A DNA stretch of 63,667 nucleotides, the filler included. It is 8 parts of 8 records of this genome, joined end to end, with 100 filler letters (N's around TTAATTAATTAA, not from the genome) between each part and the next. Parts side by side here need not be neighbours in the genome. Positions count along the whole stretch, not along the records: positions 46,633 to 57,977 come from DRR723986_7653; 7 more parts are not named here. One strand, 5' to 3'. The position numbers were made by a program, and so were the translations under genes. Under the pieces are notes generated by a model that worked only from the letters and a program-made list of their open reading frames with translations, did no database searches and was not told where the DNA came from. Below are positions 5,282 through 60,960 of this stretch, piece by piece (the stretch's first letter is position 1; every line of letters starts with the position of its first letter).

Positions 5282-5381
5282 NNNNNNNNNNNNNNNNNNN
5301 NNNNNNNNNNNNNNNNNNNNNNNNNTTAATTAATTAANNNNNNNNNNNNNNNNNNNNNNNNNNNNNNNNNNNNNNNNNNNN
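5282..5381. other. Artificial contig spacer
   Basis: 44 N + TTAATTAATTAA (stops in all six frames) + 44 N. Confidence 0.99.
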
Positions 5382-11665: not shown

Positions 11666-11765
11666 NNNNNNNNNNNNNNNNNNNNNNNNNNNNNNNNNNN
11701 NNNNNNNNNTTAATTAATTAANNNNNNNNNNNNNNNNNNNNNNNNNNNNNNNNNNNNNNNNNNNN
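11666..11765. other. Artificial contig spacer
   Basis: N44-TTAATTAATTAA-N44. Confidence 0.99.
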
Positions 11766-17322: not shown

Positions 17323-17422
17323 NNNNNNNNNNNNNNNNNNNNNNNNNNNNNNNNNNNNNNNNNNNNTTAATTAATTAANNNNNNNNNNNNNNNNNNNNNN
17401 NNNNNNNNNNNNNNNNNNNNNN
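17323..17422. other. Artificial contig spacer
   Basis: N44-TTAATTAATTAA-N44. Confidence 0.99.
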
Positions 17423-20400: not shown

Positions 20401-23400
20401 TCGCGGACGCCCAGGCGCACGGCGTGCGGTGGGTGGCGGGCGCCCCCGAGGGCCTGCTGTGCGCCGCGGACGCGGTCCTGTCCGGCGACGTGTTCCTCTC
20501 CGCCGAGGGGTTCGTCTCGGCGTCGACCGCGCACGCCGCCGCCAGCGCGGGCCACCACGCGCAGTTCACGTTCCGGGACCTGAGCGGGGGCAACCTGTGG
20601 GTCAAGGCGCGGTGCCCCGACGCGTCGTCCAACGCCTGGTACGTCAACGGCGCGCTGTGGACGCTCGCCACGTCGTCCACGTTCACGTGGCAGCAGTACG
20701 GCACGGTCAGCTCGGCCACCGTGCGGCTGGACGCCAGCGAGCCGGGGTGCGACATTGCCCTCGCGTTCGTGGGGTCCGTCACCCCGCAGTCCGCGTGGAC
20801 CAAGCACTGTCCCCTGCGCGATCCCACCACCACCACGGCTACCACGACGACCACCACCACCACCGTGGGTGAGTGGCGGTTCTCGGAGGGCGCTGGGAGC
20901 GCCGCGGCGGACGGTTCCGGGCTCGGGCACGCGCTCGCGGGCGTCGGCGCTGCCAACTCGGCGTGGCTGGCGCGCGGCGTGTTCGGGCCGGGCCTGCGGC
21001 TGAGCGGCGCCGCCGCCATCACCGTGCCCTCGGCGGTGTTCGACAGCGTGGGGAGCGACGTGACGGTGGCGCTGTGGGTGCGCGGGACGTCCGGGTCGCT
21101 GCCGGCGGCCAACAGCCTCCTCACCGCGCGCGACGCGTCGTCGCAGACCAGCCTGGCCATCCAGATCGCCACGGCGGCGGAGGAGGTGGTGTGGACGGCC
21201 GGGTTCGCGTCCGGGTCGGCCGACTCGGTGTCGGCGTCGCTGGCGGGCACCGACTACGCCGGCACGTGGACGCACTGGGTGTTCACGAAGGACGGCACGG
21301 TCGGCGGCACGATGGAGGTGTACCGCAACGGCGCGCTGCTCGCGTCGGCGTCCGGCAAGACCAAGGCCGTGTCCGTGGCCACCGCCTCCATCGACACGTT
21401 CTACGGCGACGTGGACGAGGTCGTGGTGCTGAGCGCGCACGTGGACGCGCACGCGGCGCACCGGCTGTTCGCGCGCGTGCCGGCGGCCGCCGTGGGAGGC
21501 GCCGGCACCGGCACCAGCGCCACGGCCACCTCGGACGCGGGCGCCACGGCCGCCAACGCGGTGGACGGCGACGACGCCACGGCGTGGACGTCTGCGGCCG
21601 GCGCGGCCACCGCCACGGTCGTCGTGGACTTTGGCGCGAGCGCGATGGTGCGCCTGGCCCGCCTGCGCGTGGTGTGGCCCGAGGGCGGGCTGGCGGCGGC
21701 GTACGTGGTGTCGGTGTCCGCGGACGCGACGACGTGGCTGGAGTCGGCGCGGGTGAGCGGGGCGTCGTGCTCGACGGGCGGCGCGGGCGCGCGCGTGGAC
21801 GTGGTCAGCGTGGGCGATCGCGGAATGCTGGACGTGCGCTACGCGCGCGTGGTCATGTCGCAGCCCTGCGGCTCGCAGTTCTCCATCGCCGAAGTGCGGG
21901 GCGTGGGGCCCGAGTTCGCGCTGCTCGCCAGCAACGACGGTACGGTGGTGGCCGACGCCGCGTACTGGCAGTCGCGCTGCTCGTCCGTGCAGCTCGCGGG
22001 CAGCGGGTGGGAGGTGCTGGTGCTGATGGGCGAGTACTCGGACCTGTACTACCCCGCCACGGGCGAGTCGCTGTGCTCGGTGCTGGCGGGCGCCGTCGGG
22101 AGCTACTCGTGGGCGATGGGCGGCAGCGTGGACGGCGGCGTGGTGGGCCCCACGGGCGCGCAGGCGTACGTGGACGCGGACGACATGGCGGGCGGCACCG
22201 ACGCGCTGGGCGGCAAGGCGGCGCCGGGCGACGGCCGCGACTCGACGAGCGCGTGGGGCGCGACGGCGGCCAGCGGGCTGGCCGGGGGGTGCTGTCACGC
22301 AGACGACGGCGACACCGCGGCGTGGGGGCGGGCGTTCCGCGTGTACGTGCGGCCCGGCGTCCCGGCCTCCTTGGTCGCCACCAACGGCGGCGCGTTCGTC
22401 AACCTCACGGCCACGGCGGTGGCCGCCAACGCCAACATGTACTTGAGCGCGGTGGCGGTGCGCAGCGGGTCGTTCGTGCTGTCGTACGCCGGCGGCGGCG
22501 TGGCGGACCAAGCGGGCAACCGCGCCACAGCGCTCGCCTCGTCGGGCACCACCACGGTGCAGACCGACCTGGTCGCGCCCACGGTCGTGCTCGCGCTGGG
22601 CGTGCCCGAAGTGTACGGGTACCTCGCGGTCACCGTGTACGCCACGTTCTCCGAGGCGGTCACTGGGTTCTTCCTCAGCGACGACTACACCGAGTACCTG
22701 GACATTGCCGCGGAGGGCGGCGGGGTGGTGGGCACGGTCGCCCTGGTGGACACGGAGCTGTCCGCCGCCACGGGCGAGCAAGTGTACACGATCCTGGTGA
22801 CGGTGCTCTCCAGCGGCACGTACACGCTCACGGTGGCGGCCGGGTCGGCGGTGGACGTGGGCGGCAGCACGAACCCGGCGTCCAACAGCGTCACCGTGCT
22901 GGTGGACAACGAGCTGCCCACGGCCACCGTGGCGCTCGCGTCGTCGTCCGTGGGGCAGGCCACCAACAACCCCGCCATGCGCTGGACCGTGAGCTTTTCG
23001 GAGGAGGTGGTGGGCGGCTCGGACCTCAAGTGCGCTCGCGACGGCGTGCTGACGCCGAGCTTTGTGATGGACGACGAGGGCCACGTGGTCGTGCAGAACG
23101 ACGGGCTGACCGCGGGCCAGGCCGTGTACTCTTTCCGGCAGCGCGGTGCCCTGTGGATGAAGACGCAGTGCCCTTCCACCGCCGAGAACGCGTTCTACGT
23201 GGACCGGAACAACGACGTGCGCGCCATGTGGAACGTCACCGTGTCGTCCGTGTTCGCGTGGAGCAAGTACAGCGGCGACATTGCAAGCTCCACCGTGACG
23301 TTGTACGACGTGGTGCCCAACTGCCGCATCGCCATGCTGTACCTTGGGCTGGAGACCCCAAGTGACACGTGGCAAAAGGACTGCCACGTGCTGCCCGTGC

Positions 23401-23415
23401 ACCAGGCAAACGGCT
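17427..23415 (+). CDS. Fragment (probable single exon) of a giant surface protein: tandem bacterial-type Ig-like repeats, LamG-like, F5/8C discoidin-like and Cys-rich modules
   Basis: Repeating DxTxPxxT...FSE/FNE...D.AGN units; VGEWRFSEG...WTHWVFT...EVYRNG...FYGDVDEV (LamG); ANAVDGDDATAW...VVDFG...VRYARV (F5/8C); extreme GC3; GTGAGT donor at 23416. Confidence 0.8.
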
Positions 23416-23440
23416 GTGAGTCTTCCGTCCGTGCACAGCA

Positions 23441-23470
23441 AGAGAAGAGAGAAGAGAGAAGAGAGAGAGA
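23441..23470 (+). repeat. GA-rich microsatellite at contig end
   Basis: agagaagagagaagagagaagagagagaga. Confidence 0.85.
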
Positions 23471-23570
23471 NNNNNNNNNNNNNNNNNNNNNNNNNNNNNN
23501 NNNNNNNNNNNNNNTTAATTAATTAANNNNNNNNNNNNNNNNNNNNNNNNNNNNNNNNNNNNNNNNNNNN
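23471..23570. other. Artificial contig spacer
   Basis: N44-TTAATTAATTAA-N44. Confidence 0.99.
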
Positions 23571-30972: not shown

Positions 30973-31072
30973 NNNNNNNNNNNNNNNNNNNNNNNNNNNN
31001 NNNNNNNNNNNNNNNNTTAATTAATTAANNNNNNNNNNNNNNNNNNNNNNNNNNNNNNNNNNNNNNNNNNNN
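30973..31072. other. Artificial contig spacer
   Basis: N44-TTAATTAATTAA-N44. Confidence 0.99.
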
Positions 31073-46532: not shown

Positions 46533-46632
46533 NNNNNNNNNNNNNNNNNNNNNNNNNNNNNNNNNNNNNNNNNNNNTTAATTAATTAANNNNNNNNNNNN
46601 NNNNNNNNNNNNNNNNNNNNNNNNNNNNNNNN
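46533..46632. other. Artificial contig spacer
   Basis: N44-TTAATTAATTAA-N44. Confidence 0.99.
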
Positions 46633-46878: not shown

Positions 46879-46879
<1 letters not shown>

Positions 46880-47673
46880 TGATCCGGGGGCTGGCATATG
46901 GGCTGGCCCTTGCGGTCTGGGCTGGTGGGGCGGGCGGGGCAGGGGCCTGCACGGTCGCCCCGGCCAGTGTCACCGCCTATCCCGGCAGCGTCACGGTCGA
47001 TCCCGACACGCGCGGGGCCATTGCGCAGGCATGGTTTGACGATCCCGTCACCCGTTACCGCCACTTCGTGCTGGGGCGCAATGACGAGCCCGAAACGCTC
47101 TGGGTCGATGCCCTTGGCAATCAGGGGCTCTGCGGCCATGCGCTGACACTCGACGACGATCATGTGTTCGAAGATGTGGCCCCGCGACTGGTTGACCTGG
47201 ACGGCGACGGCACCAACGAGGTGATCGTTGCCCGCAGCCATCACCGCCTCGGCGCGCAGCTCGCCGTCTACCGCTGGACCGGCTCCGACCTGACCCTTGC
47301 CGCCACCACCCCGTATATCGGCCGTAGCAATCGTTGGCTGGCGATCATCGGTGCAGCGGATCTCGACGGCGACGGGTCGATCGAGATCGCCTATATCGAC
47401 CGTCCCCATCTGGCCCGCACCCTGCGGATCTGGCGCTTTGCGGATGGCGGTCTTTCCCAGGTGTCGGCCGCGACCGGCCTCACCAATCACCGCATCGGCG
47501 AAGGCCATATCTCCTCGGGCATCCGCGATTGCGACGGCGGCACCGAGATCCTGACAGCAGACAGCACCTGGACCCGGCTCATCGCGACGCGACTGGCTGA
47601 CGGGGTGCTCACAGCCCGCGATCTCGGCCCATGGTCGCCCGGGGCACTCGCCGCGGCCCTGACCTGCACCTGA
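46879..47673 (+). CDS. Exported FG-GAP/VCBS repeat protein
   Basis: Signal peptide; two DLDGDG motifs; TGATG coupling to the ferredoxin. Confidence 0.8.
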
Positions 47674-47675
47674 TC

Positions 47676-47880
47676 CTTTCAGCTTGGCTCAAATACCTCG
47701 GGGGAGTCGCGCAAGCGACGGGGGCAGCGCCCCCATTCCGCAATCTGAATTCACTCCGCCCCTCCGGGCGGCCCGCTTGGGGGCTGCCCGGATCGACGCG
47801 CGCAAGGCGCGCGGCGAAACCGGCAATCCGTATGCACAGGGGGTGTACGGGGGGTGTACACGGGGTGTACGGGCGGCAAC
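47676..47880. repeat. Composite intergenic REP-like element
   Basis: TTGGCTCAAATACCTCGGGG, hairpins GTCGC-GCAA-GCGAC and GGGGC-AGC-GCCCC, then GGGGTGTAC x3. Confidence 0.5.
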
Positions 47881-48018
47881 GGGCGAAAATCGCAGCCATC
47901 GCGTCCGCGTCTGCGGACGCGCCGGTCGGCGGGGCGCAGCCACGGCGAAACCGATGCGGCCCCTTGCGGCCAGCGTCGATCCCCCCTAGTGCGGACCCGC
48001 ACGGGAAGGACGACCGCC

Positions 48019-48771
48019 ATGGGCGAGGCAGCGCAATTCTGGATCATCGCGGGACTGGCGGCCTACCTGATGGGGCTGTCAAAGGGTGGCGTTCCGATGA
48101 TCGCGATCCTCGCGGTGCCGCTTCTGTCGTTGTTCATGGATCCGGCGCTGGCGGCGGGCCTGTTGCTGCCGATCTACATCACCACGGACATGTATGCGGT
48201 CTATCTGTTCCGCAACGCGTTCTCTCTGCGTAACCTGAAAATCCTCATGCCCGCCGGGGCTTGCGGTGTGGGGCTCGGGTTTCTGGCGGTCTCCTACGTG
48301 CCCGGCGACGCGATCAAGCTGCTGGTTGCGCTCATTGCCGTGTCCTACCTGATCTATTCCCTGCGGCGGCGCTTTTCGAAGCGAGAGTTTCCCCCGAAAT
48401 CGGCCGACATACCGCGCGGCTTGATCTGGGGGGGCTTGTCGGGGCTGACCAGCTATATCAGCCATGCCGGCGGCCCGCCCTATCAGGCCTATGTGTTGCC
48501 GCAGAGGCTGGACAAGCTCACCTATCTGGGCACGACGACGATTTTCTTTTCTGCGGTCAACCTGTTGAAAGTTCCGCCATATATCGTTGCGGGGCAAATC
48601 ACCTGGGACAGTTTCGGTCAGGCGGTCTGGCTTATCCCCTGCGCGCTGGCCGGGGCCTGGAGCGGTGCAAGGATCGCCCGAGTTCTGCCCGAACGGGTGT
48701 TCTTCCTGCTGGTCGAGATCGCGCTGGCCGTCGTATCGGTCAAGCTCTTCTGGGAAGTTCTCGCGGGTTGA
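48019..48771 (+). CDS. TauE/SafE (TSUP) family membrane protein
   Basis: GLSKGG, AAGLLLPI, HAGGPP, NLLKVPPY; start at MGEAAQF (SD AAGGA). Confidence 0.88.
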   Translation: MGEAAQFWIIAGLAAYLMGLSKGGVPMIAILAVPLLSLFMDPALAAGLLLPIYITTDMYAVYLFRNAFSLRNLKILMPAGACGVGLGFLAVSYVPGDAIKLLVALIAVSYLIYSLRRRFSKREFPPKSADIPRGLIWGGLSGLTSYISHAGGPPYQAYVLPQRLDKLTYLGTTTIFFSAVNLLKVPPYIVAGQITWDSFGQAVWLIPCALAGAWSGARIARVLPERVFFLLVEIALAVVSVKLFWEVLAG

Positions 48772-48774
48772 GCC

Positions 48775-49797
48775 TCAAGGACTCTGAAACCCGCTGAGAA
48801 CGCTGGTCAGGTTCGCCCCCAACCCGTCGCAGATATAGCCGCCTTCCTGCACGAAAAGCGTCGGCAGCCCCATTGCCGCAATCGCCGCGCCGATGCGGGC
48901 GAACCCCGGCGTGCTGACGCCAAGCCCTTGAAACGGATCGCCTTCATAGGCATCCAGCCCAAGCGCCACCACGATCACATCCGCCCCGAAAGAGGTGACC
49001 CGATCCAGCGCCCGGTCGAGCGTTTTCAGATAGGCCTCATCCGTTGTCCCGCGCGGCAGCGGCAGGTTCAGGTTCGCGCCCAGACCCTCGCCCTCTCCCC
49101 GTTCCTGTGCGTGGCCCCAGAAGAACGGATAGAACCTTTCCGGATCGGCATGGATCGACACGGTCAGCACATCGCCGCGATGGTAGAACAAGCCTTGGGT
49201 GCCATTGCCGTGATGCACGTCGATGTCGAGGATCGCGGGGCGAAGCTCCGCCGCCCTCAACCGCTCTGCCGCGATGCCTGAATTGTTGAGAAAGCAGAAT
49301 CCACCCGCGAGATCGGCAAAGGCGTGATGCCCCGGAGGGCGCGACAGCGCGTAGGCGGACCGCTCGCCGTTTGCCACCAGAGCAGCCCCGGTGATGGCCG
49401 ATTGTGCCGACCAATAGGCGGCCTCCCATGTGCCCTCGGCAATCGGACAGGCAGTGTCGGCCTGATGGTAACCGGCCTGACCCACGGCGGATCTCGGGTA
49501 GCCGTCGCTGCGATTCGCCGGGTGGATATTGGGGATCACCTCCGCGCCGGCGCCGTCGATATTCTGCCAGCGGCGATGGATGTGGCGCAGGAAACTGAGG
49601 TATTCGGCGCTGTGAACGGCGGCGATAGGGCCAAGCCCGGCATCCGTTGGTTCTTGAAAAACGCAGCCCGCGGCCAGCGCCCCGGCGGTCAGGATGTCGA
49701 TGCGGGCGGGCTGTTCGGGGTTCGGCAGAATGGCCCCGTTGGCCATGAAGTGTTTCGGATCGTGATTTGCCTGCCGTGGGTCGAGTATCGCTTTCAT
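48775..49797 (-). CDS. Histone-deacetylase-family (acetylpolyamine amidohydrolase-like) Zn deacetylase
   Basis: PEQPAR, RPPGHHA, GGFCFLNN, DIDVHHGNGTQ, QEGGY intact. Confidence 0.92.
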   Translation of the reverse strand: MKAILDPRQANHDPKHFMANGAILPNPEQPARIDILTAGALAAGCVFQEPTDAGLGPIAAVHSAEYLSFLRHIHRRWQNIDGAGAEVIPNIHPANRSDGYPRSAVGQAGYHQADTACPIAEGTWEAAYWSAQSAITGAALVANGERSAYALSRPPGHHAFADLAGGFCFLNNSGIAAERLRAAELRPAILDIDVHHGNGTQGLFYHRGDVLTVSIHADPERFYPFFWGHAQERGEGEGLGANLNLPLPRGTTDEAYLKTLDRALDRVTSFGADVIVVALGLDAYEGDPFQGLGVSTPGFARIGAAIAAMGLPTLFVQEGGYICDGLGANLTSVLSGFQSP

Positions 49798-50276
49798 GCG
49801 TCACCTGTCAGTTTGTCAAAGCCCGCGCCGGACAGCGCCAGCGTGCGCTGGCCTGTGACCTCTGCAAGGCCCAATCTTGCGTAGAAAGCATGCGCGCGGG
49901 GGCTGCTGTCATAGACGTCGAGCCGCAGAAACCCGGCGCCCCATAGCAGCCTCCCCCGCGCCCCCGCTGCCGCCAACAGCCGCTGTCCAAGCCCCGCACC
50001 CCGCGCGTCGCCCGAGACCCACAAATCGGACACATGCATTCCCGGCATGCCCCGCGACGTGGAAAAGACCGGCGAAAACATCGCCGCGCCAACAACCTGT
50101 TCACCGCGTAGCGCCAACAAGGCATGAAAGGCAGGGCAGGGGCCAAAGCCCGCCATGTGCAGGGTGTCCAGCGCAGCGCGATGTGTATCGCCCAGATCGG
50201 TCGACAGGGTGCGCAACGCCGTATCGAGCAGCGGTAGGTCGGCTTGCGTTACGGGGCGGATCGTCAGGTCATCCAT
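49794..50276 (-). CDS. GNAT N-acetyltransferase (SSAT-like)
   Basis: FSTSRG..GMHVSDLWV...ARGAGLG, AFYARLG; ATGA overlap with the deacetylase. Confidence 0.88.
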   Translation of the reverse strand: MDDLTIRPVTQADLPLLDTALRTLSTDLGDTHRAALDTLHMAGFGPCPAFHALLALRGEQVVGAAMFSPVFSTSRGMPGMHVSDLWVSGDARGAGLGQRLLAAAGARGRLLWGAGFLRLDVYDSSPRAHAFYARLGLAEVTGQRTLALSGAGFDKLTGDA

Positions 50277-50279
50277 GGT

Positions 50280-51206
50280 TCAGATCGCTGTCCGATCCGC
50301 ACCCTTCAGGCCCAGCATCGCGCGGGCCTCTTCGGGCGTGGCGATATCGCGGCCCAGATCCTCGACGATGCGGCGGATCTTGACCACCTGCTCGGCGTTG
50401 GTTTTTGCCAGCGCGCCGCGCGATATCATCAGGCTGTCCTCCAGCCCGACCCGCACATGGCCGCCCATGGCCGCGCCCATGGTGATCAGCGGCATCTGGT
50501 GACGCCCGGCGGCCAGCACCGAAAAGGCATAATCCCCGCCAAACAGCTTGTCCGCGATCAGCTTCATATGGGTCAGGTTTTCCGGGTCGGGGCCAATGCC
50601 GCCCAGAACCCCAAAGACGAACTGGATAAAGATCGGCGCCTTGACCAACCCGCGATCGACGAAATGGCGCAGCATGTAGAGATGGCTGACATCATAGCAT
50701 TCGAACTCGAACCGGGCGCCGCGATCTTCGCCCATTTCGGTCAGGATGCGGGCGATATCTCGGGGGGTGTTCTTGAACACGAGGTCGTCAGAGCCGCGCA
50801 GAAATGGCTCCTCCCAATCATGCTTCCAGTTGCTGATCCGGTCGGCGGCGGGGTAGAGTGCGAAATTCATCGTGCCCATGTTCAGGCTGCACATCTCGGG
50901 CTCTGCCCGTTTTGGCGCGGCCAATCGCTGATCCAGTGTCATCACCGCGCTGCCGCCGGTCGAGATGTTCAGCACCGCGTCCGTCGCCTGCTTGATGCGC
51001 GGCAGGAAGCCCATGAAATGATCGACCGAGGCCGATGGCTGGCCGGTCACGGGATCGCGGGCGTGCAGATGCAGGATCGCCGCCCCGGCTTCGGCCGCGC
51101 CAAGCGCATGTTCGGTGATCTGCTCTGCCGTCACTGGCAGATAGGGTGACATCGTGGGCGTATGGATCGAGCCGGTCAGCGCGCAGGTGATGATGATCTT
51201 GGACAT
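50280..51206 (-). CDS. Beta-keto acid cleavage enzyme (BKACE, DUF849/Kce family)
   Basis: IITCALTG, HLHARD, STGG, SLNMG, ECYD, RVGLED. Confidence 0.93.
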   Translation of the reverse strand: MSKIIITCALTGSIHTPTMSPYLPVTAEQITEHALGAAEAGAAILHLHARDPVTGQPSASVDHFMGFLPRIKQATDAVLNISTGGSAVMTLDQRLAAPKRAEPEMCSLNMGTMNFALYPAADRISNWKHDWEEPFLRGSDDLVFKNTPRDIARILTEMGEDRGARFEFECYDVSHLYMLRHFVDRGLVKAPIFIQFVFGVLGGIGPDPENLTHMKLIADKLFGGDYAFSVLAAGRHQMPLITMGAAMGGHVRVGLEDSLMISRGALAKTNAEQVVKIRRIVEDLGRDIATPEEARAMLGLKGADRTAI

Positions 51207-51212
51207 GGGGCC

Positions 51213-52568
51213 TCAGGCGCTGCGGGGCTGGTTTTGGCGGATTTCGTCGGTGAACTGCGCCAATGAGCGGTCCAGCATATGGGTGATTTCGTCGAGATGG
51301 GTTTCCGTCACGATCATCGGCGGGCAGACAAGGATATGGTCTCCCTCGGTGCCGTCGCGGGTGCGGCGGGAATAGACGATCAGGCCGTTATCATAGGCGA
51401 TCTGAACGAAGCGATCAAAAGCGCGCAGTTCCCGCGCCAGCGGCGCCTTGGTCTTGCGGTCGGCCATGAATTCGAACGCCAGCAACAGCCCCTTGCCGCG
51501 CACGTCCCCGATGATCGGATACCGGTCCATCAGGCTTTTCAACCGCGCCTTCAGGGCCGCCCCCATGACCTCGGCATTGTGGCAGAGGTTCAGCCGCTCA
51601 ATCTCCGACAGCACGGCGACGCCAGCCGCGCAGGACAGCGGATTGCCCGCATAGGTAAAGCCATGTTGAAAGCCGCCATCGTCCAGCACCGGTTCCACCA
51701 GCCGCTCGTGCGCGACCATCGCGCCAAGCGGCACATAGCCCGCCGCGTATCCCTTTGACATGACGATAATATCAGGGGTGATGCCCCAATGGTCCCCGGC
51801 CAGAAACTTGCCCGTTCGACCCGCGCCGGTCATCACCTCATCGAGGATCAGCAACACGCCATGGCGCGTGCAGATCTCGCGCACCCGTTCCATGTAGCCC
51901 GCGGGCGGCACCAGTGCCCCGGTGGAGGCCCCGCCGACCGGTTCCACGATGAAGGCCAGCACGCTTTCCGGGCCTTCCTCTAGGATTTTCGCCTCCAGCA
52001 TGTCGGCATAGTGGTGGCCGGTGGCGGTGTCGTCGGGGTCGAGCCCGTCGAGATAGGCGCGCGGCGCGGGGATCTTGGGCATCGCCTGCATCATCGGCTC
52101 AAACGGCTTGGTCAGCGGCGTGTAGCTGGTGATGGCGAGCGCACCCAATGTACAACCATGGTAACAGGGCGCGCGGCTGATCACCTTCCAGCGACTCGCC
52201 GCGCCGGTGGCAACCGCGTATTGCCGCGCCAGTTTCATTGCGCTTTCCACCGCCTCGGACCCGCCCGAGACGAAAAACACCCGGTCCAATCCCTCGGGCG
52301 TCAGGGCCGCCGTCTTGCGCGCCAACGCCTCGGACGCTTCGGTCTCAAAGTGCAGCCGGTAGCCAAAGGTCGAACGGGCCATTTGCGCGCGCATGGCCTC
52401 AAGCACCACCTCGTTCGAATGGCCGATATTGCAGACCATTGCGCCGGACGATCCGTCCAGATAGCGCCGCCCCTCAGTGTCCCACATGTAGACCCCGCGC
52501 GCCTGATCCAGCACTGGTTTGCGGCCGCGCCCCTGATAGAACAAGTGGCTTTTGCCTTGGTTCGTCAT
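51213..52568 (-). CDS. Class III PLP aminotransferase
   Basis: SGGSEAVE, YHG, EPVGG, DEVMTGAGRTG, SKG, HGFTYAGNP; start at MTNQGKSHL. Confidence 0.92.
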   Translation of the reverse strand: MTNQGKSHLFYQGRGRKPVLDQARGVYMWDTEGRRYLDGSSGAMVCNIGHSNEVVLEAMRAQMARSTFGYRLHFETEASEALARKTAALTPEGLDRVFFVSGGSEAVESAMKLARQYAVATGAASRWKVISRAPCYHGCTLGALAITSYTPLTKPFEPMMQAMPKIPAPRAYLDGLDPDDTATGHHYADMLEAKILEEGPESVLAFIVEPVGGASTGALVPPAGYMERVREICTRHGVLLILDEVMTGAGRTGKFLAGDHWGITPDIIVMSKGYAAGYVPLGAMVAHERLVEPVLDDGGFQHGFTYAGNPLSCAAGVAVLSEIERLNLCHNAEVMGAALKARLKSLMDRYPIIGDVRGKGLLLAFEFMADRKTKAPLARELRAFDRFVQIAYDNGLIVYSRRTRDGTEGDHILVCPPMIVTETHLDEITHMLDRSLAQFTDEIRQNQPRSA

Positions 52569-52572
52569 GCCC

Positions 52573-53652
52573 TTATGCTCCTGGCAAGGCGGCGCAATCG
52601 CGCGGTTTGAACTGGATGTCGACTGTGTCGCCCTCGGCAAAGGGGCGGGTGTCGATCATGTTGATGGCTTGCAACTGCGTGTCGCCAGCGCGCACGAAGT
52701 AACGCACAGCCTGCCCCTGATAGTCCACGGTTTCCACCACGGCCTCTGTGCTGATCAATGACGGATCGGCCTGTCCCTTCGCCACAAGCCGCAACTTCTC
52801 GGCCCGCAGCACCAGTTTGGCGGGGCCTGTGCCCGCAAAGTTCGGGGCTTTTTCAGCCGGAACCGGAACCGTGCCAAAGAGCGGGGTGTCCACCGCAACC
52901 TGTCCGCCCTCGCGGCCGGTGCAGGACCCCGGCAGGATGTTCGATGCGCCAAGGAAATTGGCTACGAATTCACTGGCGGGGGCGTTGTAGACGGCTTCGG
53001 GCGCGCCGACCTGTTCGACGCGGCCATCCGACATCACCAAGATCTGATCGGACATCGCCAACGCTTCGGCCTGATCGTGGGTGACGAAGATCGACGTGAC
53101 ACCGATCCGCGCCTGAATGCGTTTAAGTTCCACCCGCATATCTTCGCGCAGGTTGGCGTCAAGCGCCGACAGGGGTTCATCGAGCAGCAGAACGTCGGGT
53201 TCAATCACGATGGCACGGGCCAGCGCGATGCGCTGTTGCTGGCCGCCCGACAGGGCGGATGGATAGCGGTCGGCGACATGCGGCAATTGCACGAGCTCCA
53301 GCGCCTCGGCCACGCGGCGGGCGGCATCGGTCTTTGAGACCTTGCGATACCGCAGCCCGAAACCGACGTTTTCCGCGATGGTCTTGTGCGGGAACAGAGC
53401 ATAATTCTGAAAGACGATGCCGAGATTGCGCTTATGGATGGGCAAATCGTTTACCCGGCGGCCCTTGATGGTGATCTCGCCGCCTGTCGGATCAAGCAAA
53501 CCGGCGATCATCCGCAACGTCGTGGTCTTGCCGCAGCCTGACGGCCCCAGAAGCGTGACGAACTGGCCCTCGGGGATGTCCAGAGACATTGGTTCGACGG
53601 CGGTGAAATCGCCGAATTTCTTCTCGATATTGGTCAGGGTGACGGCGCTCAC
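52573..53652 (-). CDS. PotA-like ABC transporter ATPase
   Basis: GPSGCGKT, LSGGQQQR, DEPLSALD, TOBE-like tail; GTG start. Confidence 0.92.
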   Translation of the reverse strand: MSAVTLTNIEKKFGDFTAVEPMSLDIPEGQFVTLLGPSGCGKTTTLRMIAGLLDPTGGEITIKGRRVNDLPIHKRNLGIVFQNYALFPHKTIAENVGFGLRYRKVSKTDAARRVAEALELVQLPHVADRYPSALSGGQQQRIALARAIVIEPDVLLLDEPLSALDANLREDMRVELKRIQARIGVTSIFVTHDQAEALAMSDQILVMSDGRVEQVGAPEAVYNAPASEFVANFLGASNILPGSCTGREGGQVAVDTPLFGTVPVPAEKAPNFAGTGPAKLVLRAEKLRLVAKGQADPSLISTEAVVETVDYQGQAVRYFVRAGDTQLQAINMIDTRPFAEGDTVDIQFKPRDCAALPGA

Positions 53653-53714
53653 GGGCGGGGATCCTTTCGGCAAAAGGGGGCGGCGCGAAGGAACGCCGCC
53701 CCTGTCAGTCAGTC

Positions 53715-54857
53715 TCAGTATCCGCGTTGCACGCGGCTGAAGGTTTCCGACCAGTCCTGTTCGTTGCCGTTCCAGTAATCCGGGACCGCAAAGGTCAGGC
53801 CCGCCAGGGTGCCGGTCGGATCGAAGGCAGGCAGGGTTGGGATCTTGTCGCCCAGATCGACCTGCGTCGGGTCGAGCGCGGGCGGATAGTTCTGCCCTTC
53901 TGCCACCGCGATGGATGTCGCCGGATCCAGCATGAAGTTCAGCAATTCCTCGCAGGCCTCCAGCGGAGATCCGGCGATCACGAACAGGCATTCCTGCCAG
54001 CCAAAGCCATTGGGCGGGTCGATATAACCGATGTCATGTCCCTGTTCCTGCAACGCGAAGATGCGACCGGACCAGGCTTCGGTGACGTGGATTTCGCCCT
54101 CGGCCAGCAGGCTCATCAGCTCGGCGCCCGAGGTCCAATAGCGCAGGGCCAGGTCGCGGTGCTGGCGCACAGCGTCCCAGACGGCTTCCATGTCTTCGAT
54201 GGCGTTCGGATCCTGACCGGTTTGCAGCGCGCCATACCAGATCCGGGTGCGCCAGTCGTTCCAGCCGCCGATCTTGCCCTCGTAGGCTGCGTTGATCAGC
54301 AGGCCCGCGCCTTGCGCCTGCGCCTCTTCGTCCGAGATATAGGCGCGGTTATAGGCGATGCCGGTGGTGCCGTAGTCGTAGGGCACTGCCGAGAGCGACC
54401 CACCGCTGATCGCGCGCAGCGGATCGGACAGGGCCTGGATGCACAGGCCCAGATTGGGGATGTTGGCCTCGTTCAGTTCCACCGACAGGCCAAGGTTGTG
54501 ATAGCGCGCATAGTCGAAAACGCCGGACAGGTGAGCGATATTGTATTCGCCGGGCTGGCTGGTGCGCACGCGGGCCAGATATTCGTCGCCGCCACCGAAA
54601 GTACCATCGACCACGTTGATGCCGCTGGCCGCCGTATAGGGGTCGAAGGCATGTTCGCGGAAGGCCTCGGACACGATGCCGCCCCAGCCGTCGAACCGTA
54701 CTTGTGTGACATCCTGCGCAGCGGCGTAGCGCGCGAAAGGCGTCTGCACGCCATAGGCGAGGCCCGCGGCACCGATCAGCCCGAGGAAATTGCGCCGCTC
54801 GATGTCGCCATTCTGGAAACGTTCCAGAAGCCGTTGATAACGTGTGGTATTGTCCAT
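53715..54857 (-). CDS. PotD-like substrate-binding protein with Tat-type signal
   Basis: ERRNFLG twin-arginine motif; VPYDYGTTGIAYN, AWSG. Confidence 0.88.
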   Translation of the reverse strand: MDNTTRYQRLLERFQNGDIERRNFLGLIGAAGLAYGVQTPFARYAAAQDVTQVRFDGWGGIVSEAFREHAFDPYTAASGINVVDGTFGGGDEYLARVRTSQPGEYNIAHLSGVFDYARYHNLGLSVELNEANIPNLGLCIQALSDPLRAISGGSLSAVPYDYGTTGIAYNRAYISDEEAQAQGAGLLINAAYEGKIGGWNDWRTRIWYGALQTGQDPNAIEDMEAVWDAVRQHRDLALRYWTSGAELMSLLAEGEIHVTEAWSGRIFALQEQGHDIGYIDPPNGFGWQECLFVIAGSPLEACEELLNFMLDPATSIAVAEGQNYPPALDPTQVDLGDKIPTLPAFDPTGTLAGLTFAVPDYWNGNEQDWSETFSRVQRGY

Positions 54858-54912
54858 CTTGTGATCTCCCTGTTGGTGAGGTCTGAGGTGAAAGGGTGGG
54901 TTTGGTTTGCGC

Positions 54913-55704
54913 TCAGTCGGCCCGATCGCGCCGCATTGCCAGTTTTCGCGAAATCGCCAGCCCAAGCAGCGGCAGCCCGGCGGTGATCAGGATCATCAAG
55001 GTGCCAAGCGCGTTGATCTCGGGGCTGATGGAATTGCGCAGCATTGCGAAGATCTGTGTCGGCACGGTTTCCACGCCGCCGGGTTTCCAGAACAGTGTGC
55101 CGGTGATGTCGTCAAAGCTGATGGTGAAGGCGAAAAGCCCGCCCGCCGCGACCGCCGGCATCAGTAGCGGCAGGGTGATGGTCAGAAAGGTCTGAATGGG
55201 CGAGGCACCAAGGCTCATCGCGGCCTCCTCGACATCGCGCCGGATACCGACAAGCCGCGCCTGCACCACAAGGATCACGAAGGGCAGGGTGAAGATGACA
55301 TGGCCAAAGAGCAGCAGGGTAAAGCTTTTGTGGATGCCAAGGAATTGCAGGAACAGCAGCAGCGCGACGGCCAGCACCACCTCGGGCACCAGAATGGGGG
55401 CAATCAGGATGGTGGAAATCGTGTTGCGAAAGGGGATGTTGTAGCGCACCAGCGCGAGGCTGGCCAAGACGCCCAGGGTGGTGGAGATCAGCGCCGTCAA
55501 TGCCCCGAGCGTCAGCGAGGTGCGCAGCGCCCGCAGGATCGCGTCATTGTCGAACAGCTCGCCGAACCAGCGCAGCGACAGGCCGGTCATCGGGAAGGAT
55601 CCGAACTGGTTGGCGTTGAACGACAACAGCACCACGACCGCAATGGGCAGGAACATGAACAGATAGACCAGAACGGTCCAGACCCTGATCAGACGCCATC
55701 CCAT
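54913..55704 (-). CDS. PotC-like ABC permease
   Basis: FMFLPI, EEAAMSLGA, FTISFDD, SPEINALGT. Confidence 0.9.
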   Translation of the reverse strand: MGWRLIRVWTVLVYLFMFLPIAVVVLLSFNANQFGSFPMTGLSLRWFGELFDNDAILRALRTSLTLGALTALISTTLGVLASLALVRYNIPFRNTISTILIAPILVPEVVLAVALLLFLQFLGIHKSFTLLLFGHVIFTLPFVILVVQARLVGIRRDVEEAAMSLGASPIQTFLTITLPLLMPAVAAGGLFAFTISFDDITGTLFWKPGGVETVPTQIFAMLRNSISPEINALGTLMILITAGLPLLGLAISRKLAMRRDRAD

Positions 55705-56591
55705 CAGCCCAGTCCCTTCATCAATTGGCCCATGCCAAGGAAGTGGTTGTAGAGCATCACCAAAGCGCCAAGCACGCCAAGCAACAGCAGCGACAGCGCC
55801 GCGCCGAGCGGCCAGTTCAACTGGGTGATGATCGCCTCATAGACGAGGTTCGCGAACATCGCGTCGCGCGGCCCGCCAAGCACGGCGGGGGTAATGTAAG
55901 TGCCCGCGCCAAGCACGAAACACAGCAGGCCTCCGGCAGCCAGACCCGGCAACGACAGGGGCAGGGTGACTTGCAGGAAACTTTGCCATTTGGTGGCCCC
56001 GAGCGAGCCTGCCGCATCTTCCAGCGTTTCATCTACGCCATCGAGGCTGACATAGACATTGAGAACCATGAACGGCAGCAGGAAATGCACAAGGCCCAGG
56101 ATCACCGTCGTTTCATTATACAGCATCTGTATGGGTTCGCTGATGATCCCCAGCCATTGCAGCGCGGTGTTCAGTGCGCCGGATGTGCCGAGGATGTAAA
56201 TCCAGCTCATGGTGCGGATGATGTAGCTGATCCAGAACGGTAGCATCAAAAGCAGCAACAGCAGCGCCTTGTTGCCCTTGGCCCGTGCGATGAAATAGGC
56301 GGCGGGATAGCCCATCAGCGCGCAGATCACCGTGGTGATCGCAGCAATGCGCAGCGTGGTCAGCAGGATATCTCGAAAGAACCTGTCGGTCAGAACGTCG
56401 GCCCAGTTGTCGGTGTGGAACCCCGGCTGCACATCGCCCACGGATGTCCGCAGCCAGAAGGAATAGACCACGATGAAAAGGACCGGCACGATCAGCAGCA
56501 GCGTGATCACCAGCAGCGACGGTGACAGCAGAATCCAGGGCTGGCGGGCCTCGCGGGCTTCGATGGACATGCGCTTCCTCGGTTGCGGCAT
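55704..56591 (-). CDS. PotB-like ABC permease
   Basis: GYPAAY, PFWISYIIR, LPFMVL, LPLSLPG, NWPLGAA; start may be 56570. Confidence 0.9.
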   Translation of the reverse strand: MPQPRKRMSIEAREARQPWILLSPSLLVITLLLIVPVLFIVVYSFWLRTSVGDVQPGFHTDNWADVLTDRFFRDILLTTLRIAAITTVICALMGYPAAYFIARAKGNKALLLLLLMLPFWISYIIRTMSWIYILGTSGALNTALQWLGIISEPIQMLYNETTVILGLVHFLLPFMVLNVYVSLDGVDETLEDAAGSLGATKWQSFLQVTLPLSLPGLAAGGLLCFVLGAGTYITPAVLGGPRDAMFANLVYEAIITQLNWPLGAALSLLLLGVLGALVMLYNHFLGMGQLMKGLG

Positions 56592-56649
56592 TGGCGCGAG
56601 GATGCGAATGCGTTAAGCATAGATCAAATAGATAATAGGTATTCTAATA

Positions 56650-56664
56650 ATAGGCTAAACCTAT
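56650..56664. promoter_or_regulatory. LysR-type T-N11-A operator
   Basis: ATAG-N7-CTAT inverted repeat in the AT-rich divergent gap, overlapping the lysR ATG. Confidence 0.6.
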
Positions 56665-57631
56665 GGCTGTGGAAGACTCGCGCCTATCCCCCGACCGCAT
56701 CCTGCGGGAACTGGACTGGAACCTGTTGCGCACCTTTGTGATTCTGGCGCAATCGCAGTCGATCACCGATGCAGCACGCAAGATGAACCTGGCTCAGCCC
56801 TCGGTCTCGGCGGCGTTGCAACGGCTGGAGGACCGGATCGGCCGCCGCCTGATCGACCGAAAACCGGGGCATTTCCAGCTGACAGAGGCCGGCGAGAGGC
56901 TGTTTGCCGAGGCATTGGAGATTCAAGGCTCGATCCTGCGGCTGACAACGCTGATGCGGGACATGACGGATGAGGTGCGCGGCCATGTGCAGGTCGCGCT
57001 GGCCAGCCATGTCGTGTGCCCGCTGCTCGATCAGGCTCTGGCGGAGTTTCATGCCGCCCATCCCAAAGCCACGCTGTCTTTCGATGTCAGCACCAGCGCC
57101 CAGACTGTTGCCGCCGTCAGCGCCCGAAGCGCAAGCTTTGCCATCTGTCTTGTGCGCGACCGTGACCCCAAGCTGGAATATCGCAGGCTTTACCGGGAAT
57201 TCTTTGGCCTGTTCTGCGGTCCGCCACATCCGCTGTTCGGCAAGGAAGGGCTGTCGCGCAGTGATCTGGCGGGGCACAACACGGTCAGCTTTCAGACCGA
57301 CCGATTGCAGGATGTTCTGAAACCGGTGGCCCTGCTGCGCGCCGAATCCGATATCGGTGAACAGGTCGTGGGCACGTCGAGCCATCTGGAGGAGGTCCGG
57401 CGGATGATCGTCGCCGGTCTGGGGATCGGGCCGCTGCCGGTCCATGTGGCGGCGCGCGATGTGCGGGACGGGCTTTTGTGGCGGCTGCCGCCCTACGACA
57501 ACCCGCCCGCCGTGGATGTGCATGTTGTCTGGAACCCCCGGACCCGGATGAACCGGGCCGAGGAGTCATTGCTTGAAAGGATCCTCGAAAAGATTGATGC
57601 GACCCCGATCGAGGATCGCACCTATCGCTGA
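56663..57631 (+). CDS. LysR-type transcriptional regulator
   Basis: LDWNLLRTF...SITDAA...QPSVSAALQRLE...LTEAG; divergent from the ABC/catabolic operon. Confidence 0.93.
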   Translation: MAVEDSRLSPDRILRELDWNLLRTFVILAQSQSITDAARKMNLAQPSVSAALQRLEDRIGRRLIDRKPGHFQLTEAGERLFAEALEIQGSILRLTTLMRDMTDEVRGHVQVALASHVVCPLLDQALAEFHAAHPKATLSFDVSTSAQTVAAVSARSASFAICLVRDRDPKLEYRRLYREFFGLFCGPPHPLFGKEGLSRSDLAGHNTVSFQTDRLQDVLKPVALLRAESDIGEQVVGTSSHLEEVRRMIVAGLGIGPLPVHVAARDVRDGLLWRLPPYDNPPAVDVHVVWNPRTRMNRAEESLLERILEKIDATPIEDRTYR

Positions 57632-57637
57632 GCTGCC

Positions 57638-57977
57638 TTAGCCGACAACCGCCTGAATGCCGAAGAACAGCACCGCAGACATGATCGCCGCCGCAGGCAC
57701 GGTGATGATCCACGCCGCGATGATGGTCATGAAATGCGACCGTCGCACCAGTTTGCGGCGGCGGCGTTCCTCTGGCGCGATGCGGTTTTCATCCGGCATG
57801 TTCACGCGGGCCAGCCGCAACCGGCGTTCCGCGTCCCATTCCCGGAAGAAGCCGACGCCAAAGACGCCACCCACGGCGATATGGGTGGAACTGACCGGCA
57901 GTCCAAGCCAGCTGGCCACGATGACCGTGATCGCCGCCGACAAGGCGACGCAATAGGCGCGCATCGGGTTCAGCTTG
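57638..57977 (-). CDS. PiT-family inorganic phosphate transporter, C-terminal fragment
   Basis: ASWLGLPVSSTHIAVGGVFGVG, AAWIITVP. Confidence 0.88.
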
Positions 57978-58077
57978 NNNNNNNNNNNNNNNNNNNNNNN
58001 NNNNNNNNNNNNNNNNNNNNNTTAATTAATTAANNNNNNNNNNNNNNNNNNNNNNNNNNNNNNNNNNNNNNNNNNNN
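57978..58077. other. Artificial contig spacer
   Basis: N44-TTAATTAATTAA-N44. Confidence 0.99.
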
Positions 58078-59868: not shown

Positions 59869-59898
59869 TCGGATTTGAAGCAAATAGGAGAGCAAAAC

Positions 59899-60960
59899 AT
59901 GATTGCATCAAATATGGACCAACTTTTTGGCACTATGCGAATTGCCATGCTAATGGCTTGCTGCTTATTCCTGACTGCGCAGGTCGGCAGCATCCAGGCA
60001 CAGGTCGACTTAATTGTTCCATTTGAAATCGGCGACAAATGGGTCTACAGCGGCTCCCGCTCTGAGCAAAGCAATTGGCCGCTGGACGAAGACGGCAATA
60101 AAATGAAATCGTCGAGTTATAGAATGGTTTGGGTTGTAGTTGGCGATTCATTTTTGAACGGACGTTCGGTAAAAGTTATCCGCAAGGATTTTTATACCTT
60201 CAATGGTGAGCTAAGCGGCACAAGCAAGGACTTGTTTACGGTAGACTCAAGCAAGATGCAGTTCCTGGACAGTGACTGCGAACACAGTGGTGTAGAATGG
60301 CGCGACTACCTAAATACGGATTTACAACAGGATTTTACTGAAAAACTCGTTTGCCCGCTTGATCCGGATCCTGATCGTGAATTCCACCCAGACTCGCTAC
60401 TCCTCTCATTTAAACGCCTTCCCGGCAGCGCTCCAAGCCAAGTTTTTGGCAATGTGGCAAACCGCGAAGAGCACACTACACGCCGAACTGATATGGAGGG
60501 TTTTGGTTTTGACACGCGGATCAGTGCTCCCGGAGTGGGACTACTGAGCTTTAGCAGTCAGTATACGGTGCCATTCATTGGCAACCATCAATACTATCAC
60601 AGTTACAATCTTGTCGGCGCTGTGATTGCCGGCGAACACTATGGTGACACGCGCCTGACGACTTCGGTAGAAAACTCGGATCAGCATGCGGCGGCGGACG
60701 GGGCGGAATTAACAATCTACCCGAATCCGTTAAACAATCAGGCGACAATGCTTTTAAACAGCTCAGGTTCGCAGTATAAAGTCTCCCTCAGGGATATGTT
60801 GGGTCGTGATATTGGAATCCTGGCCGAAGGACGTATAGATAACCCCGGCCAACAAACGCTGAATGTTAACACAAGCAATCTGGCGGCCGGCAACTACATG
60901 GCGATTCTGGAAGTTGATGGCCGCATGCAGGCTACAACACTTTTGCTTAAACTACCCTAA
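59899..60960 (+). CDS. T9SS-secreted protein, paralog 2
   Basis: PFEIGDKWVY, GVG, LVGAVIAGEHYGDT, CTD (IYPNP...DMLGR...LAAGNY). Confidence 0.85.
   Translation: MIASNMDQLFGTMRIAMLMACCLFLTAQVGSIQAQVDLIVPFEIGDKWVYSGSRSEQSNWPLDEDGNKMKSSSYRMVWVVVGDSFLNGRSVKVIRKDFYTFNGELSGTSKDLFTVDSSKMQFLDSDCEHSGVEWRDYLNTDLQQDFTEKLVCPLDPDPDREFHPDSLLLSFKRLPGSAPSQVFGNVANREEHTTRRTDMEGFGFDTRISAPGVGLLSFSSQYTVPFIGNHQYYHSYNLVGAVIAGEHYGDTRLTTSVENSDQHAAADGAELTIYPNPLNNQATMLLNSSGSQYKVSLRDMLGRDIGILAEGRIDNPGQQTLNVNTSNLAAGNYMAILEVDGRMQATTLLLKLP

Follow-up and report, generated by a model that had tools for sequence, protein, structure and literature searches.

A BKACE operon with an aminotransferase and an acetylation–deacetylation pair: a candidate catabolic route for beta-lysine-type amino acids

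Introduction

Aerobic breakdown of L-beta-lysine by Pseudomonas B4 reportedly runs through N6-acetylation, transamination (EC 2.6.1.65), cleavage of 3-keto-6-acetamidohexanoate and deacetylation (EC 3.5.1.51), the cleavage step being said to depend on acetyl-CoA and to release acetoacetate. The route is known as a set of enzyme activities, without sequences for comparison. Here we describe an operon at positions 48775–57631 of a 63,667-nt stretch of DNA (the whole stretch is called the window below), the products of which would cover the same four reaction classes in the same order: a GNAT acetyltransferase, a class III aminotransferase, a BKACE, which would convert a beta-keto acid and acetyl-CoA into acetoacetate and an acyl-CoA, and an HDAC-fold deacetylase. 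An ABC importer and a divergent LysR-family regulator accompany these enzymes. We propose a catabolic operon in which a transaminase supplies the BKACE with its substrate, and an acetyl protect/deprotect pair acts before and after these two steps; this arrangement differs from the Pseudomonas B4 route in that many orthologous operons lack the acetyltransferase.

Lysine fermentation offers a second point of comparison. Its BKACE, Kce, likewise cleaves a lysine-derived beta-keto acid to acetoacetate and an aminoacyl-CoA, and a class III aminotransferase is possible in the cluster. Unlike what is proposed here, however, Kce acts on a free-amine substrate, its keto acid is made by a dehydrogenase, no acetylation/deacetylation pair is involved, and the hosts are anaerobes with aminomutases. 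AblA and AblB make the osmolyte N-epsilon-acetyl-beta-lysine, and share with the present operon an N6-acetylation by a GNAT, but they are biosynthetic; the window GNAT has no match to an AblB model, and KamA-family genes were found in one of five cluster-holding genomes (see Discussion). That N-epsilon-acetyl-beta-lysine is an osmolyte is also evident from titles and abstracts in the literature. In the operons for carnitine and 2-deoxyribonate, according to the available text of two preprints (bioRxiv 10.1101/205583 and the NetSyn preprint), a dedicated enzyme makes the beta-keto acid, a BKACE turns it into acetoacetate and an acyl-CoA, and a transporter and a regulator are included, as in the window. 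There, the upstream enzyme is a dehydrogenase acting on a hydroxy acid, whereas the window operon would use a transaminase acting on an amine, together with the acetyl protect/deprotect pair.

In the open-access full-text literature, no genes were found assigned to beta-lysine catabolism or to EC 2.6.1.65 and EC 3.5.1.51, the point on which the earlier, sequence-only reading of this DNA had advised a check, and no mention of its intermediates in this sense was found; the earlier BKACE screen and the Pseudomonas B4 work lay outside the scope of that search, and a prior mention there is possible.

Results

Operon organization

Open reading frames (ORFs) combined with Pfam and NCBIfam scans revealed eight close-packed genes on the minus strand at 48775–57631, with a LysR gene divergent from them. 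The features, in the direction of operon transcription, are as follows.

56663–57631, plus strand: LysR-family regulator (Pfam HTH_1 9.4e-20, LysR_substrate 2e-32)
56592–56662, no strand: divergent control region of 71 bp, AT-rich, with a conserved operator-like box TATCTATTTGAT
55704–56591, minus strand: ABC permease, PotB-like (PermB; BPD_transp_1)
54913–55704, minus strand: ABC permease, PotC-like (PermC; BPD_transp_1)
53715–54857, minus strand: periplasmic substrate-binding protein (SBP), PotD/PotF fold, very divergent (SBP_bac_8 3.6e-17)
52573–53655, minus strand: ABC ATPase with a TOBE domain, GTG start inferred (ABC_tran 1.3e-38, TOBE_2 1e-11)
51213–52568, minus strand: class III aminotransferase, omega-amine:pyruvate type (PF00202 1.8e-100)
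50280–51206, minus strand: BKACE (PF05853 4.8e-107, model positions 1–274 of 274)
49794–50276, minus strand: GNAT acetyltransferase, SSAT / thialysine N-epsilon-acetyltransferase type (PF00583 8.5e-12)
48775–49797, minus strand: HDAC-fold deacetylase, acetylpolyamine amidohydrolase (APAH) type (PF00850 1.7e-69)

The PermB and PermC genes overlap by 1 nt and the GNAT and HDAC genes by 4 nt, the gaps between the ATPase, aminotransferase, BKACE and GNAT genes are 3–6 nt, and the SBP gene is flanked by gaps of 55–59 nt. Start codons were shifted inward from those of the longest ORFs for the aminotransferase (451 aa), the SBP (380 aa) and the ATPase (361 aa), giving lengths that fit those of the homologues. 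The ORFs and domains bear out the tight operon of the sequence-only reading, in which an ABC system, class III aminotransferase, BKACE, GNAT and HDAC-family deacetylase lie divergent from a LysR gene. Its description of the ABC system as PotBCDA-like stood as far as families and fold are concerned, but the likeness is distant, with every subunit under its NCBIfam equivalog cut-off.

Conservation across related loci

A scan for BKACE, with one genome per species, returned 585 relatives; the 80 best loci were retained and searched by tblastn with the window proteins. One locus (L057), where the BKACE match covered <90% of the query, was dropped from the counts, leaving 79 loci. ORFs in the loci were called by a heuristic based on GC content at third codon positions (GC3), and families were grouped at ≥35% identity over ≥70% of the length. 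Within the 79 loci, BKACE has HDAC as a neighbour in 51 cases, GNAT in 47 and the aminotransferase in 49. All three adjoin BKACE in 38/79 loci and none of them in 16/79; the rest either run into a contig end or contain partial sets. The aminotransferase, the HDAC or both adjoin BKACE in 57/79.

A maximum-likelihood tree was constructed for the BKACEs of the 79 loci and the window (80 in all). The label for an adjoining aminotransferase and/or HDAC, carried by 58 rows, changes 3 times on this tree, compared to a mean of 19.5 changes for shuffled labels, and 0/500 shuffles were as low as 3; as close kin share labels, the result speaks for a clustered label and does not demonstrate independent gains. 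A single subclade, made up of Azospirillum and its relatives, holds the 20 BKACEs with no or unknown context, and there genes for 3-hydroxyacyl-CoA dehydrogenase and 3-hydroxybutyrate dehydrogenase lie next to BKACE. The grouping of the operon genes is not due to chance.

The cluster extends beyond these loci. In a sample of 400 Gammaproteobacteria, an HDAC of ≥55% identity was found in 6 genomes, with 31 weaker matches, and when five of these six regions were widened, BKACE adjoined the HDAC in 3 and full operons were seen in 2. The HDAC orthologues without BKACE (L115, L117) had no informative neighbours.

Two kinds of importer lie beside the orthologous cores, a PotD/F-type system in 22 loci and a Lys/Arg/Orn-type SBP_bac_3 system in 14 loci, and the family membership of both points to cationic amino compounds as likely substrates. 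A FAD-dependent amine oxidoreductase (DAO; 16 loci) and a RidA-family protein (14 loci) occur after the HDAC gene (L001–L003, L005, L021, L026–L032, L037, L039, L057 and L069); neither is present on the window contig. In L037, which contains both proteins, there is no room for an aminotransferase between the ATPase and BKACE genes, and the FAD oxidase with RidA would be a second way of converting the amine to the ketone. In L074 an M20 deacylase occupies the position of the HDAC. M20 is found in 2 loci plus L118, and L069 and L118 carry HDAC and M20 together. Since the deaminase and deacetylase slots are filled by unrelated enzymes in L037 (FAD and RidA) and L074 (M20), these replacements support the scheme proposed below. 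A hotdog-fold thioesterase gene lies beside the LysR gene in three Rhizobiaceae loci, which fits an acyl-CoA product. Rarer neighbours, such as a RecQ helicase, TRAP and peptide permeases, and regulators, were judged to be incidental.

BKACE

The best matches of the window BKACE in the PDB include 3e02 (427 bits, 2.8e-127) and P. denitrificans BKACE15 (8rio; 385 bits, 2.3e-114), while the Kce of lysine fermentation (2y7d) gave only 156 bits (1.5e-44). The stretches FEFECYD, GGHVRVGLED and HLHAR align identically with 8rio. The HLH (His-x-His) and GLED stretches, which we take to supply the Zn ligands, are thus common to the two enzymes. The equivalents of E171 and R254, given as the catalytic residues of BKACE15 in the available part of its description (PMC11961710), are conserved, and as judged by this alignment the catalytic residues of the window BKACE are intact.

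The two enzymes differ in context and in two positions. The surroundings of BKACE15 suggest a role in aromatic-compound degradation (PMC11961710, in the portion available) and contain no aminotransferase, GNAT or HDAC. Position F196 of the window BKACE is F in 98% of the clade linked to the aminotransferase and HDAC and T elsewhere, including BKACE15, and position F228 is F in 97% of this clade and W elsewhere, again including BKACE15.

As far as the accessible text of the family survey goes (PMC4922564), BKACE group G1 acts on hydrophobic and non-charged polar substrates, and group G2 on the free-amine substrate KAH. The window BKACE groups with the relatives that take uncharged substrates, BKACE15 being its nearest characterized relative. 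Because it is nearer to BKACE15 (uncharged substrates, G1) than to Kce, an N-acetylated keto acid would be favoured over a free-amine keto acid as its substrate.

Deacetylase

The PDB matches of the HDAC-fold protein are APAHs: 3men (1.2e-96), 9gkz (5.9e-92), 6phr (7.1e-82) and 3q9b (5e-76). With the APAHs of cluster 4 (M. ramosa ApaH, Pseudomonas ApaH, PA1409 and PA0321) it shares a length of ~340 aa and the RPPGHH and EGGY motifs, which are associated with acetyl-specific polyamine deacetylases in the available text of Graf et al. (PMC11532494) and are kept in 44–46 of the 46 orthologues of the window protein. The same text describes a salt bridge between Glu106 of the M. ramosa APAH and the distal amine of the substrate, and a PIS motif that replaces the gatekeeper motif of HDAC10. 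In the window HDAC, V105 is aligned to the M. ramosa E106, with V or I at this position in 43/46 orthologues, and PFQ stands in place of PIS, with F or L at the middle position in 45/46. Of the features that mark cluster 4, the window protein therefore has the motifs and the overall similarity, and lacks the acidic residue or His at 106 and the PIS motif. It also differs from cluster 4 in its context, its gene adjoining BKACE instead of lying in a polyamine regulon.

Because Glu106 is replaced by V/I and PIS by P-F/L-x while the catalytic motifs are kept, the HDAC looks like an APAH whose specificity has shifted to acetamidoalkyl substrates that carry no distal cation, and would fit, for example, an acetamido-acyl product. 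In one gammaproteobacterial metagenome-assembled genome, two tandem HDAC paralogues, 65% and 46% identical to the window HDAC, follow the GNAT gene (L072, 3234–5300; G001 contig 210).

Aminotransferase and GNAT

The aminotransferase reached no NCBIfam equivalog, its best model being PRK07483 (443.6 bits, below the cut-off of 485). Its best PDB match was 3i4j (1.1e-91), followed by omega-transaminases and putrescine/polyamine:pyruvate transaminases at ~1e-71 to 1e-76, among them a putrescine aminotransferase (6gwi, 3.2e-75) and a polyamine:pyruvate transaminase (9j4z, 2.5e-71). Its public homologues bear generic names, or names that contradict each other (‘aspartate aminotransferase family’, ‘BioA’, ‘taurine--pyruvate’).

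For the GNAT, a PDB search with the single sequence gave weak matches only. A profile built from 26 orthologues matched, over positions 2–157, a thialysine acetyltransferase (12jc, 1.2e-29) and P. aeruginosa 2fe7 (1.6e-29), further SSAT2 (2e-25), and then SSAT1 and NATA1, a plant ornithine N5-acetyltransferase. By its profile the protein is of the SSAT / thialysine N-epsilon-acetyltransferase type, and the matched enzymes work on diamines or lysine analogues, which they acetylate at the terminal amine.

Transporter and regulator

All transporter subunits scored below the NCBIfam cut-offs: PermB gave 201.6 bits with the PotB model (cut-off 348), PermC 207.4 bits with the PotC model (cut-off 326), and the SBP only 33.8 bits with the PotD model (cut-off 582), while the ATPase gave 367 bits with PhnT2 and 352 bits with PotA (PotA cut-off 482), both under their cut-offs. 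By sequence, the best PDB match of the SBP was 7xjm (2.7e-12). A Foldseek search with its AlphaFold model (pLDDT 77.7) placed PotF, PotD and SpuD/E at the top, at 16–20% identity, with MotA (mannopine) and Atu4243 (GABA, gamma-aminobutyric acid) lower. The SBP has a long leader (54740–54857) containing a twin-arginine-type motif, RRNFLG, and DRRxFLGL is present in the window SBP and all 22 orthologues listed; the leader hints at Tat-dependent export of the binding protein.

The LysR protein reached no NCBIfam equivalog. It contains both the N-terminal HTH_1 domain and the substrate domain, placing it among LysR-type regulators, and its orthologue occupies the same divergent position in related loci. 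Counting the window, 19 of 22 intergenic regions between orthologous LysR and PermB genes, drawn from among loci L001–L057, contain the box TATCTATTTGAT (read on the operon strand) without a mismatch. This pattern marks the box as a probable LysR operator, and its conservation argues for conserved control by the divergent regulator. A sigma-70 consensus scan of the control region found 2 sites compared to a shuffle mean of 2.0, which is chance level, and a terminator scan found sites no more numerous than in shuffles.

Contig and surroundings

The 63,667-nt window is made up of eight contigs of 5–15 kb with GC contents of 0.49–0.73, joined by N...TTAATTAATTAA...N spacers at the following positions.

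5282–5381: spacer
11666–11765: spacer
17323–17422: spacer
23471–23570: spacer
30973–31072: spacer
46533–46632: spacer
57978–58077: spacer

Since the gene content is mixed, with alphaproteobacterial and Bacteroidota-like parts, the window does not represent one replicon but a pooled record or metagenome bin. The operon fills most of an 11.3-kb contig (46633–57977, GC 0.633) that begins and ends within truncated genes, including a phosphate-transporter fragment (57638–57964). The window BKACE shares 88% identity with Phaeobacter and Pseudophaeobacter BKACEs, and the aminotransferase is 90% identical to its counterpart in Nioella nitratireducens; judged by these protein similarities the contig is Rhodobacterales-like, the nearest relatives of the operon proteins being from Rhodobacterales.

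A genomic island or horizontal transfer was considered and rejected, because both GC jumps, at 46.5 kb and 58.0 kb, fall on N spacers that join unrelated contigs; the operon edges owe their change in GC to assembly joins, which are no evidence for an island. Among the 20 matching records in PLSDB, there were only short BKACE or phosphate-transporter matches covering ≤8% of the query, and none covered ≥80%; in two annotated PLSDB regions that were inspected, the context was different or unannotated.

Downstream of the HDAC gene, at 46879–48771, are genes for an FG-GAP repeat protein and a TauE/SafE-family membrane protein, the latter convergent with the HDAC gene, and neither was seen beside the operon in the related loci. 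Elsewhere in the window, a contig of 72.5% GC carries a 2031-aa ORF (17427–23522) with Big_12 and F5/8 type C domains, opposite which lies an antisense ORF of equal length, as is usual at such GC. Two further features are Bacteroidota-like and unrelated to the operon: a MoxR / DUF58 / BatA / BatD aerotolerance-type operon on one contig (33263–45884), and a Por_Secre_tail sorting-domain protein (59875–60960) on a separate contig of lower GC.

Discussion

Taking the gene content, the enzyme families, the catalytic motifs and the conservation of core and operator, which were observed directly, as a basis for substrates, step order and direction of flux, we infer that the operon is induced by its substrate, a basic beta-amino acid that it serves to break down. 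Of the candidate compounds, beta-lysine (3,6-diaminohexanoate) and/or its osmolyte form, N-epsilon-acetyl-beta-lysine, has the best support. To the beta-lysine-type mechanism as a whole we assign a probability of roughly 45%, and a lower one to beta-lysine itself. In the proposed scheme, the PotD/F-fold ABC system would import the compound, and the SSAT-like GNAT would acetylate its distal primary amine, by which the later 3-keto acid would be kept from cyclizing (as chemical reasoning suggests) and would be uncharged, the form preferred by this type of BKACE. The class III aminotransferase would then convert the 3-amino to a 3-keto group, and BKACE with acetyl-CoA would yield acetoacetate and an omega-acetamidoacyl-CoA, which for beta-lysine would be 4-acetamidobutyryl-CoA. 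The APAH-type deacetylase would strip the acetyl group, leaving acetate and GABA or the CoA ester of GABA. The divergent LysR protein would switch the operon on via the conserved operator, and operons without GNAT could take N-epsilon-acetyl-beta-lysine directly. The logic of protection, transamination, cleavage and deprotection, put forward in the sequence-only reading, gained from the co-conservation of the core, the type of GNAT, the altered APAH residues, the kinship of the BKACE, the importers and the slot replacements; these gains do not extend to beta-lysine itself. Of the one-to-one mapping of enzymes onto this logic, the presence of the four classes was upheld, but the mapping is weakened by the absence of GNAT from ≥9 otherwise intact loci and of the aminotransferase from a few.

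Several observations weigh against this proposal. The identity of the substrate is one area of difficulty. What ties the operon to beta-lysine in particular appears to be biochemical precedent alone. The modelled SBP would have a PotF/PotD-like fold, from which, at 16–20% identity, a ligand is not readable. The transporter, the nearer PDB relatives of the aminotransferase, the GNAT and the HDAC are all from families best known in polyamine metabolism. In NCBIfam, the window GNAT gave no match to an AblB-type model, which we take to be TIGR03827 in that library, and matched only HaaN, RimI and PRK10514 at E-values up to 0.01; as judged by these models, it is not an AblB-type beta-lysine acetyltransferase. 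The KamA family of lysine 2,3-aminomutases was found in 1/5 cluster-holding genomes, which is uninformative for a catabolic role, though beta-lysine would for this reason have to come from outside. The window BKACE exceeds the cut-off of NF053538, the equivalog for 3,5-dioxohexanoate:acetyl-CoA acetone transferase (508.1 bits, cut-off 430). The order of the steps is a second area, as a class III aminotransferase can act after BKACE on the aminoacyl-CoA, a precedent provided by Kat (PMC3149608, in the part available), and the proposed order is tentative.

The make-up of the related loci adds further points of this kind. GNAT is absent from L004, L017, L019, L046, L061, L064 and L069, where the BKACE–HDAC spacing is only 25–251 bp, and also from the gammaproteobacterial operons L114 and L118, amounting to at least 9 loci. 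The protection step is therefore not universal; in such clusters the substrate would have to arrive acetylated, or a GNAT would have to be encoded at another site. L037, L038, L043, L047, L061 and L064 are without the aminotransferase, and L063 has only a 38%-identical aminotransferase, located downstream. L018 and L020 contain the aminotransferase and BKACE without GNAT or HDAC, and in L061 and L064 a DMFA2_C-like protein accompanies BKACE and HDAC, without aminotransferase and GNAT. The DMFA2_C-like protein is found in 10 loci (L047, L049, L060, L061, L063–L066, L078 and L079), its gene being just upstream of that for the aminotransferase or BKACE, except in L047, where it is downstream on the other strand. 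A creatininase-family protein is found in 5 loci (L004, L007, L013, L018 and L019), inside operons with the Lys/Arg/Orn-type importer. These two neighbours are without a role in the scheme.

Use of polyamines or acetylpolyamines is an attractive explanation in that polyamine labels attach to four of the five families of enzymes and transporters. In this case a PotABCD-like system would import putrescine, cadaverine, spermidine or their N-acetyl forms, the SSAT-like GNAT and the APAH would interconvert the free and acetylated compounds, a SpuC-like aminotransferase would carry out terminal deamination, and BKACE would have a side role or act on some unrelated compound. The fold of the SBP, nearest to PotF, PotD and SpuD/E, the aminotransferase matches 6gwi and 9j4z, the diamine acetyltransferases matched by the GNAT and the APAHs matched by the HDAC, at E-values down to 1.2e-96, all agree with it. 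However, transamination of a polyamine yields an aldehyde and not a beta-keto acid, the operon is without an aldehyde dehydrogenase, and BKACE, the most constant member, which clusters on the tree with the presence of the aminotransferase and HDAC, would be left without a substrate. The HDAC also lacks the Glu that holds the distal ammonium, the transporter subunits fall far short of the PotABCD cut-offs (33.8 against 582 bits for PotD), and many orthologous clusters have the Lys/Arg/Orn-type importer instead. We consider polyamine use distinctly unlikely. The equivalog hit raises the question of whether the BKACE is a true 3,5-dioxohexanoate (triacetate) enzyme whose neighbours are functionally unrelated to it, for which the family name is the sole point in favour. 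No triacetate-making gene was seen on the contig or among the recurrent neighbours of the related loci, and the conserved, translationally coupled neighbours are amine-handling enzymes and importers. Moreover, the activity behind the name was measured in vitro, and for the P. denitrificans relative, BKACE15, the authors call the physiological role unknown in the available text (PMC11961710). Since the conserved neighbours of the window BKACE handle amines, we doubt the name, which for this clade is probably over-specific and reflects the in vitro activity of relatives; a dedicated triacetate enzyme is extremely improbable.

Two alternatives remain closer to the proposed chemistry. The sequences do not fix the chain length, and another diamino beta-amino acid might take the place of beta-lysine, such as 3,5-diaminohexanoate (which would lead to 3-acetamidobutyryl-CoA) or a 3,omega-diamino acid of shorter chain, or else a precursor that is cyclic, an amide or a peptide. 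This is unlikely in our view, as is its extension, a prior opening of such a precursor by the products of the creatininase-like, DMFA2-like, M20 or FAD-oxidase/RidA genes, although accessory amidohydrolases and oxidases do recur (DAO in 16 loci, RidA in 14, the DMFA2_C-like protein in 10, the creatininase-family protein in 5, and M20 in 2 plus L118). To our knowledge, beta-lysine alone among such compounds occurs naturally in acetylated form and has an aerobic pathway of this kind described for it. The family name of the BKACE and the substrates of its relatives, as far as the available descriptions go, speak for C6 acids with a polar group at C5, whereas the narrow tunnel of APAHs suits a linear acetamidoalkyl chain (PMC11532494, in the portion available), into which a branched 3-acetamidobutyryl group would presumably fit less well. 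It is also conceivable that the deacetylase acts first, in the salvage of an N-acetylated monoamino beta-amino acid that the HDAC would free and the aminotransferase and BKACE degrade, with the GNAT as a detoxifying or regulatory accessory. The loci with the aminotransferase and BKACE alone (L018, L020) and the dispensability of GNAT in ≥9 loci are in keeping with this order, as is the acceptance of plain aliphatic beta-keto acids by G1-type BKACEs, on the available evidence. Against it, the relatives of the GNAT acetylate distal amines of diamines or lysine analogues, the importers are of types for cationic substrates, and HDAC-fold enzymes act on acetamides at the end of a linear chain and are not known to act on an acetamide beside a carboxymethyl branch. 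Such deacetylase-first salvage appears very unlikely.

Returning to beta-lysine, a stronger version of the proposal is that these genes are the genetic basis of the aerobic L-beta-lysine pathway, encoding its N6-acetyl-beta-lysine transaminase, 3-keto-6-acetamidohexanoate cleavage enzyme and 4-acetamidobutyryl(-CoA) deacetylase as well as a non-AblB beta-lysine N6-acetyltransferase, with the GNAT-less versions serving imported N-epsilon-acetyl-beta-lysine. We put this forward tentatively, as possible but on the whole doubtful, and the same caution applies to its corollary that the pathway genes occur widely among Alphaproteobacteria of marine and soil habitats. Being compact, conserved and present in cultured strains, among them Roseibium aggregatum IAM 12614 (L030), Sedimentitalea nanhaiensis DSM 24252 (L021) and Ensifer oleiphilus (L066), the operon lends itself to direct tests of the hypothesis by standard assays. 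If true, three orphan enzyme activities would gain sequences, a BKACE subfamily that pipelines would name after an in vitro substrate would acquire a physiological role, and the altered specificity residues of an APAH subfamily would find an explanation. Rhodobacterales, Stappiaceae and Rhizobiaceae would also emerge as a sink for osmolytes of the beta-lysine type, and a compatible solute of archaea and anaerobes would be a regular food of aerobic heterotrophs.

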